This document shows positions 45,290-45,375 of a DNA stretch of 64,000 nucleotides, in pieces. Source of the DNA: Eubacteriales bacterium. Its GTDB lineage: Bacteria > Bacillota > Clostridia > Oscillospirales > CAG-272. The DNA lies in assembly GCA_045612865.1 (NCBI GenBank), contig JAZKZW010000082.1, forward strand, positions 5,135 through 69,134, read 5' to 3'. Numbering within the stretch: position 1 is the first letter of the stretch; the number at the start of each line of letters is the position of its first letter. The position numbers and the translations under genes are program-made. Under the pieces are notes generated by a model, which was not told the origin of the DNA, made no database searches, and worked only from the letters and a program-made list of their open reading frames with translations.

Positions 45290-45375
45290 TGGTGAGCGGG
45301 ATGGGACTCGAACCCACGGTGGACATTTGTCGAGAGATTAAAAGTCTCTTGTACTCGCCTCTGTACTACCCGCTC
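45290..45375 (-). tRNA. tRNA with anticodon UUU (Lys) carrying an extra ~15 nt variable arm
   Basis: acceptor GAGCGGG/CCCGCTC, loop CTTTTAA, variable CGACAAATGTCCACC, encoded CCA. Confidence 0.55.

Follow-up and report, generated by a model that had tools for sequence, protein, structure and literature searches.

The subject of this analysis is a gene for tRNA-Lys(UUU) that carries an additional stem-loop in its variable region, encoded on a phage-like stretch of 64,000 nucleotides (nt) from contig JAZKZW010000082.1 (positions 5,135–69,134 of the forward strand) of the Eubacteriales bacterium assembly GCA_045612865.1. This whole stretch is referred to as the window, and all coordinates are given within it unless another contig is named. 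The gene is on the minus strand, which had not been given in an earlier reading of the letters by themselves (the sequence-only reading), and it comprises the following parts:

45290–45375, minus strand: tRNA-Lys(UUU) gene of 86 nt with an encoded CCA (ARAGORN, Rfam RF00005 and minimum free energy fold), laid out as an acceptor stem of 7 bp, a D stem of 4 bp with a D loop of 8 nt, an anticodon stem of 5 bp, a variable region of 15 nt, a T stem of 5 bp and the discriminator A73.
45340–45342, minus strand: anticodon UUU (tRNA positions 34–36), in the loop C32-U33-UUU-A37-A38 (sequence and ARAGORN).
45318–45332, minus strand: variable region CGACAAAUGUCCACC (sequence; ARAGORN bracket s(((vvvv)))ssss).
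45322–45331, minus strand: extra arm with stem GAC/GUC and loop AAAU (fold, orthologs and pairing in the wider family).

The RNA reads GAGCGGG-UA-GUAC-AGAGGCGA-GUAC-A-AGAGA-CUUUUAA-UCUCU-CGACAAAUGUCCACC-GUGGG-UUCGAGU-CCCAU-CCCGCUC-A-CCA. Sequence, ARAGORN and fold agree with the sequence-only reading on a class I cloverleaf with a lysine anticodon UUU, an anticodon loop CUUUUAA and a D stem GUAC/GUAC (pairs G10-C25, U11-A24, A12-U23 and C13-G22), and on the length of 15 nt for the variable region. The nucleotides expected for tertiary contacts can all be read from the sequence (U8, A14, G18G19, G15-C48, the T-loop UUCGA, U33 and A37). The gene scores 59.8 bits against the Rfam RF00005 tRNA model (gathering score 29; model positions 1–71 of 71), within the range of the other tRNAs of its array, and its minimum free energy structure is the cloverleaf plus the GAC/GUC hairpin (−28.4 kcal/mol, z = −2.84). 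Neither a pseudogene-like fold nor assignment to another isotype was found: the fold is intact and ARAGORN calls the gene as Lys.

The variable region parses as C-GAC-AAAU-GUC-CACC, most simply a 5-nt loop of the usual type (C...CACC) whose first base is followed by an inserted 10-nt hairpin; this leaves one unpaired nucleotide on the 5′ side of the arm and four on the 3′ side, with G15 still able to pair with the last variable-region C as position 48. An arm of 3–4 bp had been proposed; the arm is upheld at 3 bp and not at 4, because the fourth A-U pair would leave a loop of only 2 nt. Since 59% of shuffled variable regions also form a hairpin of ≥3 bp, a single 3-bp hairpin in 15 nt is not significant alone, and the reality of the arm therefore depends on comparison with related sequences.

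Such a comparison with related phage tRNA sets was possible at two levels. At the first, relatives of the window phage were retrieved via its Band 7 protein, and the orthologs at loci L107, L252, L253 and L254 via a D-arm pattern search. Arm-bearing tRNA-Lys(UUU) orthologs with ~90% backbone identity to the window tRNA are present in five loci (L001, L107, L252, L253 and L254), whose contigs are independent and were drawn from viral as well as metagenome collections; in L001 the gene is 87 nt long and stands in the matching Val-Lys-Gln order. Compensatory changes among the orthologs are found in the acceptor, anticodon and T stems. The variable regions are:

Window: C-GAC-AAAU-GUC-CACC
L001 and L107: C-GACA-UUA-UGUC-CAUC
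L252 and L254: C-GGUGC-AAU-GCACC-CUC
L253: C-AGC-UUAG-GCU-CAUC

The window and its orthologs thus hold four different variable-region stems, each of them complementary, and RNAfold predicts the hairpin in every one. As the arm sequences differ yet stay complementary, the arm is maintained by selection in the lineage of the window. The exact sequence from anticodon to T arm of the window tRNA-Lys had no match in viral contigs, and GenBank gave no close phage relatives of the region, only generic tRNA matches and none for the Lys gene. The relatives also carry other arm-bearing tRNAs: an extra arm is present on 86-nt tRNA-Thr(UGU) genes in L001 (8564–8649, stem GAC/GUC), L003 (349–434) and L008 (7735–7820; both GGC/GCC), and L008 has a 95-nt tRNA-Ile(UAU) with a 23-nt variable region (4875–4969). 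The tRNA-Thr(UGU) of the window is normal, at 75 nt.

At the second level, viral and genome contigs were scanned with the pattern ACTTTTAAT-N(19-27)-GGTTCRANTCC, which combines the Lys(UUU) anticodon loop with a T arm at class II spacing. The scan returned at least 120 viral loci, many of them on contigs >100 kb (up to 618,736 bp), and at least 120 loci in genome contigs. ARAGORN confirmed 136 distinct tRNA-Lys(UUU) with a variable-region arm (V arm), 81–94 nt long, from the two sources. Hairpins of ≥3 bp were found in 90% of the variable regions of this family compared with 59% of shuffles, and hairpins of ≥4 bp in 51% compared with 19%. GNRA loops make up 52 of 123 (GAAA alone 41), and the common layout of the family is that of the window tRNA: one nucleotide, a stem of 3–5 bp, usually a tetraloop, and a tail of 3–4 nt (CAUC, CACC). 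A covariance model was built from ten V-arm Lys tRNAs and 150 matches were aligned to it. In this alignment 95.1% pairing is seen in the V helix, and each of its three pairs varies on both sides (for example GC 37, AU 35, CG 26 and UA 11), much as in the canonical stems; the helix by itself shows 95.5% pairing, where shuffles give 47.5 ± 2.3%, and 52 different stems occur. Most family members have A as the discriminator base. Their D arms vary: many are class II-like, having a 3-bp stem and an extended GCCGAGUGGUUGAAGGC-type loop, while that of the window tRNA is class I-like. Taken together, we consider with high confidence that the window locus is a genuine tRNA-Lys gene with a selected extra helix.

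Members of the family occur in cultured phages. The Rhodobacter phage RcXuper carries both a tRNA-Lys(CUU) and a tRNA-Lys(UUU), each of 88 nt, the Caulobacter phage CcrBL9 and its relatives an 87-nt tRNA-Lys(CUU), and the Xanthomonas phage XacN1 an 89-nt tRNA-Lys(CUU) adjoining a normal 77-nt tRNA-Lys(UUU). Similar near-full-length sequence matches of 85–86 nt make DSS3P8, vB_RpoS-V10 and Cp1R7A-A1 candidate carriers. Where these genes are annotated they are plain 'tRNA-Lys', and in DSS3P8 the matching stretch is without annotation. In the regions of RcXuper and CcrBL9 that were examined Lys is the sole class I isotype with an arm, as it is in the window array.

Among the matches listed for genome contigs, V-arm Lys genes were present in 53 of 120 loci, and 44 of these 53 were dense arrays with 4–34 tRNA genes in a locus of ≤8 kb. 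A collection of plasmids queried with 18 diverse V-arm Lys tRNAs gave no match at an E-value of 1e-10. The fraction of arm-bearing genes among the neighbours of V-arm Lys genes was highest for Ile(UAU) (0.50), followed by Thr(UGU) (0.26), Cys (0.22) and Asn (0.21); it was ~0.02 for Asp and zero for Ala, Gly(GCC), Val(GAC), Thr(GGU) and nearly all Arg, one Arg(UCG) being the exception.

A different setting was observed in contigs of Actinomycetota metagenome-assembled genomes (Frankiales and Mycobacteriales), where a lone tRNA-Lys(UUU) of 85–87 nt has the variable region C-GCG-GAAA-CGC-CAUC (L160 5179–5263 and L164 2977–3061, also L165, L185, L187 and L241). These copies are flanked by genes for PPK2, an oxidoreductase, a thiolase and an alcohol dehydrogenase, with no tRNA array and no integrase seen, which suggests that they are native chromosomal genes. 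The reverse anomaly was also met in phage arrays: L087 and L012 encode tRNA-Leu(UAA) genes (ARAGORN 'taa') of 77–78 nt with a Leu anticodon, a short variable loop and no extra arm, their bodies being up to 81% identical to the window Lys tRNA.

The window tRNA carries the full identity set described for E. coli LysRS, namely U34, U35, U36 and A73 (PMC9976931), and Lys tRNAs remain its closest matches when the anticodon is masked. Of the 9697 codons in the window, 408 (4.2%) are AAA, and at AAA columns of the Band 7 protein alignment the homologs have K in 52 of 83 cells (63%), the rest being E, Q, R or T, a profile like that of AAG; AAA is therefore read as lysine. The lysine of the KxDG motif of the RNA ligase is encoded by AAG and the other catalytic motifs were not found by simple patterns, so this codon check was uninformative. 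Reassignment of AAA was considered and ruled out by its share of codons and by the homolog profile. The tRNA probably delivers lysine.

Reviews confine long extra arms to Leu, Ser and Tyr in bacteria and to Sec (PMC9976931, PMC7609411), as the sequence-only reading had stated. Measured against these reviews a Lys tRNA with an extra arm is indeed unusual, but it is also recurrent, given at least 120 viral loci, cultured phages and arrays. The window tRNA resembles the class II Leu, Ser, Tyr and Sec tRNAs in having a variable region of >10 nt that forms a stem-loop, and its 15 nt, 3-bp stem and 4-nt loop are close to the size of bacterial Leu and Tyr arms. It differs from them in its Lys anticodon and identity, four Watson–Crick D pairs, 8-nt loop and G-C 15:48, and lacks the class II core (3-bp D stem, non-Watson–Crick 13:22 and enlarged D loop) as well as the short variable loop of 4–5 nt shared by all described tRNA-Lys. 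The proposal that the arm might mark a chimeric tRNA did not hold up: besides the Lys-like body, the G-C 15:48 pair and the 4-bp D stem, the orthologs show compensatory changes in all stems. A class II origin was likewise ruled out by the anticodon-masked body and the class I D arm.

Known exceptions to the rule are the nematode nev-tRNAs (PMC3333845) and the allo-tRNAs and selC* tRNAs (PMC5389517), which differ in body, acceptor/T-stem branch and identity. Nev-tRNAs (PMC3333845) and other eukaryotic V-arm tRNAs share with the window tRNA a long arm combined with an anticodon other than Leu, Ser or Tyr, but they have Leu-type class II bodies, are charged with Leu and would mistranslate, whereas the window tRNA has a Lys body, would read AAA as Lys and belongs to a bacterial virus; a nev-tRNA-like misreading of AAA is unlikely. 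Allo-tRNAs and the selC* tRNA-Cys (PMC5389517, PMC7609411) are likewise odd long-V-arm tRNAs of bacteria, phages and tRNA polycistrons, including arrays of Acidobacteria, but they have 8/4 or 9/3 branches and Ser identity (G73 or U73), in contrast to the 7/5 branch and A73 of the window tRNA. The tRNA array units of mycobacteria and other bacteria are comparable in that most cellular V-arm Lys genes lie in dense arrays, and the D, anticodon and variable arms of array-unit tRNAs are unlike those of their chromosomal counterparts (PMC12803027); the literature on them is without an extra arm on tRNA-Lys, and the window locus is phage-like rather than plasmid or chromosome. A search of full-text literature found no description of a V-arm tRNA-Lys in phages, and the XacN1 genome paper (PMC5852040) leaves that of XacN1 unmentioned. 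The window tRNA is thus a phage variant in which a class II-type arm is set on a class I core with Lys identity, and it belongs to a widespread family that is apparently undescribed.

The window resembles part of a huge phage, with its genes all on one strand. The phage-like content includes gyrase A and B, a nicotinamide adenine dinucleotide (NAD)-dependent ligase, RecJ, DnaB, a sigma-70 factor, and HNH and GIY-YIG endonucleases, and there are further a major-vault-protein-shoulder protein and a Band 7/flotillin protein. The features most closely connected with the tRNA-Lys gene and its proposed role are:

42354–54437, minus strand (all genes): tRNA array of ~27 tRNA genes, including a ROOL RNA (ARAGORN and Rfam).
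45565–45593, minus strand: promoter-like site TTGATT-17-TG-TATAAT, upstream of the small open reading frame (ORF) and tRNA-Lys (10/12 consensus, extended −10).
45397–45531, minus strand: small basic ORF of 41–44 amino acids (aa), ...LKSRTKRDNGRIIRKLERQ..., between the promoter-like site and tRNA-Lys.
45230–45258, minus strand: next promoter-like site, TTGAAA-17-TG-TATAAT, just 3′ of tRNA-Lys (11/12 consensus).
52677–52751, minus strand: tRNA-like gene with an altered or enlarged anticodon loop, ortholog of the 74-nt short-V Lys(UUU) gene of L001 (L001 761–834).
25820–28106, minus strand: RNA repair cassette, with a metallophosphoesterase (25820–26353), a T4-Pnk-like kinase (26341–26823) and an NgrRnl-like RNA ligase (26919–28106).

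The Lys unit therefore has the order promoter-like site, small ORF, tRNA-Lys, next promoter-like copy. The sites belong to an element of ~50 nt with eight copies over 42214–53605 (for example 45214–45265, 45549–45600 and 53337–53388; repeat families D3, D4 and D9), which on the minus strand has the form TTGAtt-17 nt-(TG)-TATAAT and precedes small groups of tRNA genes. If the elements function as promoters, the Lys unit would end, and a tRNA-Gln unit begin, at the 45230–45258 site. The sigma-70-family factor of the phage is encoded at 28216–29127. Upstream of the ortholog tRNA, the small ORF has tblastn matches in L001 (E-value 7e-10), L107 (1e-8) and, more weakly, L253 (1e-3); it had no match to a known family, and homologs were found in close relatives only. 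ARAGORN alone finds 25 tRNA genes in the window. It reads the anticodon of the gene at 52677–52751 as a 4-nt 'agtt'; decay of this gene is one possibility, a quadruplet decoder or some other altered decoder another. Because the short-V ortholog has this altered loop, the window is without a normal-V Lys(UUU) gene.

Several other features of the array and its surroundings were recorded. A full-length ROOL RNA (RF03087) lies between tRNA-Thr and tRNA-Leu at 42702–43321 (minus; 161.6 bits against a threshold of 99.1). The tRNA-Gln(UUG) at 45026–45105 (minus) is a milder departure from class I, with 80 nt, an unpaired variable loop of 8 nt and a 3-bp D stem. Rfam matches at 47186–47257 (43.8 bits) and 47994–48066 (45.2 bits), both minus and missed by ARAGORN defaults, may be decaying copies; the second is His(GUG)-like, its anticodon stem being mismatched and its T loop non-standard. 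A tRNA-like element at 44349–44425 (minus) has a perfect acceptor stem, T arm and CCA and an aberrant D/anticodon region; it matches the transfer-messenger RNA model at its ends only (22.6 bits) and overlaps the 3′ part of a PD-(D/E)XK endonuclease ORF (44404–44847). Outside the array, a tRNA with anticodon CUA at 22444–22519 (minus), called 'Pyl' by ARAGORN, has a body like that of the phage's tRNA-Gln (G73 and a similar D arm), and the 29 long ORFs end in TAA (17) or TGA (12) and never in TAG, which suggests an amber suppressor and possible recoding of TAG to Gln. The protein of 822 aa at 30767–33235 (minus) combines major-vault-protein shoulder, vault repeat and SPFH domains, and an ORF of 797 aa (30920–33313, plus) is antisense to nearly its whole gene. 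A second SPFH/flotillin protein is encoded at 39756–41288; in the Xanthomonas phage XacN1, too, a Band 7 gene lies beside Lys tRNAs.

The isoacceptor encoded here is one that several bacterial defences attack. tRNA-Lys(UUU) is a common target of PrrC (PMC10264068), the PARIS effector AriB (PMC11464382, PMC12409363) and the bacterial Schlafen RorSlfn5 (PMC13056530), and AriB also targets Thr(UGU) and Asn(GUU) (PMC11464382, PMC12409363). AriB cuts between positions 40 and 41, contacts D-loop U16/U17 in the published model and is blocked by the substitutions U16C, A41C and U39A (PMC12409363). The window tRNA has A16, no U17 and U41 in place of the U16, U17 and A41 of E. coli, whose sequence may not be that of the host, and its extra helix emerges beside the 3′ strand of the anticodon stem. 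Thr(UGU), the second AriB target, is arm-bearing in relatives, and Thr(UGU) and Asn(GUU) rank high among arm-bearing neighbours. A close precedent is phage T5, whose tRNA-Lys evades AriB through single substitutions at positions 16, 39 and 41 (PMC11464382, PMC12409363); escape through the anticodon loop has been described for nuclease-resistant phage tRNAs (PMC10264068), and the tRNA arrays of bacteria are regarded as putative anti-defence units (PMC12803027). Like T5, the window phage encodes an isoacceptor of an often-targeted host tRNA that differs from E. coli at the AriB determinants 16 and 41, together with further anti-defence functions. In T5 single bases are exchanged within a class I tRNA of the usual 76 nt, whereas what sets the window tRNA apart is an extra variable-region helix.

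The remaining gene content of the phage is in keeping with a conflict over tRNA. The repair cassette was identified with Pfam and by comparison of the kinase with PDB 1ly1/1ltq (E-value 1.6e-8) and of the ligase with 5cot (1.8e-25), and it is kept in the relatives L001, L002 and L004–L007. Healing and sealing by kinase, phosphatase and RNA ligase is the response of T4 to PrrC. The cassette of the window therefore equips the phage for a T4-like conflict over tRNA; it differs from T4 Pnkp/Rnl1 in that its ligase is of the NgrRnl (Rnl5-like) type and its kinase and phosphatase are separate proteins, and the link between cassette and tRNA-Lys in the window is one of co-residence in the genome, 17 kb apart. 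A nucleotidyltransferase of phrog_388 adjoins the tRNA array. The relatives also keep two minus-strand NAD-salvage genes, for an isochorismatase-family (nicotinamidase-like) protein (33546–34085) and a nicotinate phosphoribosyltransferase (NAPRTase, 37846–39057), which are of the type used by phages against NAD-depleting defences.

The targeting of tRNA-Lys by nucleases, A16 and U41, the position of the arm, the repair and NAD-salvage genes and the arrays together make a shielded replacement tRNA the best-supported interpretation. According to this model, the small ORF and tRNA-Lys(UUU) would be transcribed from their own strong sigma-70-type promoter, and the tRNA would serve the phage as a lysine decoder of AAA and, through wobble, of AAG. 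The 10-nt hairpin inserted between variable-loop positions 44 and 45 of a class I body is the selected element. The arm, which would project from the core alongside the 3′ side of the anticodon stem, may leave use by LysRS, EF-Tu and the ribosome intact, as in class II tRNAs, while the tRNA would be cut poorly by nucleases whose recognition covers the entire tRNA-Lys(UUU) body, such as PARIS AriB, PrrC/RloC and Schlafen-type enzymes, so that the phage could go on decoding AAA after the host tRNA-Lys is destroyed. A functional phage tRNA-Lys(UUU) whose arm acts as a nuclease shield is, at somewhat less than an even chance, our best explanation overall. Nuclease evasion as the role of the arm itself is more tentative, although it is the most likely of the roles considered, and the support that gene content and known targets lend to it is circumstantial. 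With similar reserve, it is possible that extra arms on class I tRNAs (mostly Lys(UUU) and Lys(CUU), less often Thr(UGU), Asn(GUU) and Ile(UAU)) constitute a widespread and undescribed counter-defence adaptation of phages and mobile arrays, a steric shield against PARIS AriB, PrrC/RloC, Schlafen and Cas13-type nucleases.

A number of observations weigh against a nuclease shield; the Actinomycetota chromosomal copies and the arms on isotypes that are not known targets speak most against it as the sole role. The native look of the former implies that the arm is not purely a phage device, and the latter include Cys, Trp, Met, Pro and Ile(UAU) neighbours, which are not known targets of PARIS or PrrC. 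Variable loops are normal in 41 of the 134 distinct Lys(UUU) genes of the same viral loci, and since the sample was chosen for Lys(UUU), the excess of Lys among arm-bearing tRNAs has no true denominator. The anticodon loop, the main feature recognised by PrrC-type enzymes, is unaltered in the window tRNA, and the AAAU loop of its arm is without the GNRA motif common in the family.

Among the alternatives, the arm could instead be a recognition handle, often with a GNRA loop, bound by a dedicated partner that marks or services the tRNA; a phage or host modification enzyme, a particular type of LysRS, the RNA-repair or CCA enzymes of the phage and the upstream small basic protein are candidates for this partner. 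Class I LysRS approaches the tRNA from the side opposite the variable loop, and alphaproteobacteria, the hosts of cultured carriers, use this class of enzyme. A handle would account for the conserved layout and GNRA-rich loops, and fits the conserved small basic ORF in apparent co-transcription with the tRNA in four orthologous loci and the presence of a nucleotidyltransferase and a repair cassette in the same phage. However, with 52 stems, diverse loops and AAAU in the window, recognition by a partner would need to depend on shape and not on sequence; the small ORF is restricted to close relatives and matches no family, and unrelated V-arm loci have no partner gene in common within flanks of 5–7 kb. 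We regard a handle as rather unlikely.

Alternatively, the arm may be a structural stabiliser, stiffening a weak tRNA with an A/U-rich anticodon that is made in bulk with incomplete host modification, with no direct role in defence. The distribution of arms is compatible with this, since they are found mainly on weak or U34 anticodons (Lys UUU/CUU, Ile UAU, Thr UGU, Asn GUU) and are absent from Ala, Gly GCC and nearly all Arg, with Asp at ~0.02; GNRA loops on covarying stems suit a role in folding, and the Actinomycetota chromosomal copies find a place here as well. Against it, a normal-V tRNA-Lys(UUU) suffices in most bacteria and many phages, both forms coexist in arrays, and the gain in predicted folding energy from a 3-bp hairpin is small. 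We consider a stabiliser an unlikely account of the arm.

A neutral, tolerated expansion of the variable loop is disfavoured, and its probability appears low. Engineered tRNAs accept hairpins in the variable region (PMC7590224), and the frequency with which shuffled variable regions give a 3-bp hairpin by chance shows how readily one might arise, but neutrality leaves unexplained why pairing is kept by compensatory changes in the orthologs, why the family helix is 95% paired over 52 stems where 48% is expected, why GNRA loops are enriched, and why widely differing phage lineages, cultured phages among them, share one layout.

It is very improbable that the arm switches identity by making the tRNA a substrate of LeuRS, TyrRS or SerRS, with AAA then decoded in part or entirely as an amino acid other than lysine. 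The Leu identity set does include A73 and A14, and that of Tyr A73 and U35 (PMC9976931); many family members have class II-like D arms, and phage arrays contain short-V Leu(UAA) tRNAs with Lys-like bodies. The window tRNA itself is nevertheless not Leu-like (G15-C48 in place of A15-U48, and a 4-bp D stem), not Ser-like (A73, not G73) and not Tyr-like (U34, not G34), and its LysRS identity nucleotides are complete. The AAA columns are never L, S or Y in homologs, and misreading of a codon of this frequency would be very costly. Finally, a pseudogene, assembly artefact or recombinant chimera, for which the degenerate tRNA-like genes at 47186–47257, 47994–48066 and 52677–52751 could be cited as precedents in the window, is essentially refuted by the perfect cloverleaf with its complete invariant nucleotides and encoded CCA, an Rfam score typical of the array, orthologs on independent contigs with compensatory substitutions and a promoter-like element of its own upstream.

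A large and structurally conserved set of Lys tRNAs, including those of cultivable phages and mobile arrays, therefore breaks the rule that extra arms belong to Leu, Ser, Tyr and Sec, while annotation pipelines label these genes 'tRNA-Lys' without flagging the arm. As a natural hairpin-tagged tRNA that would still work in translation, the window tRNA may be useful for tRNA engineering. Because tRNA-Lys(UUU) is a favourite target of anticodon nucleases, the arm is a testable candidate for a new form of viral tRNA immune escape. If this interpretation is true, immune evasion by phages would repeatedly have broken the restriction of class II architecture to Leu, Ser, Tyr and Sec.

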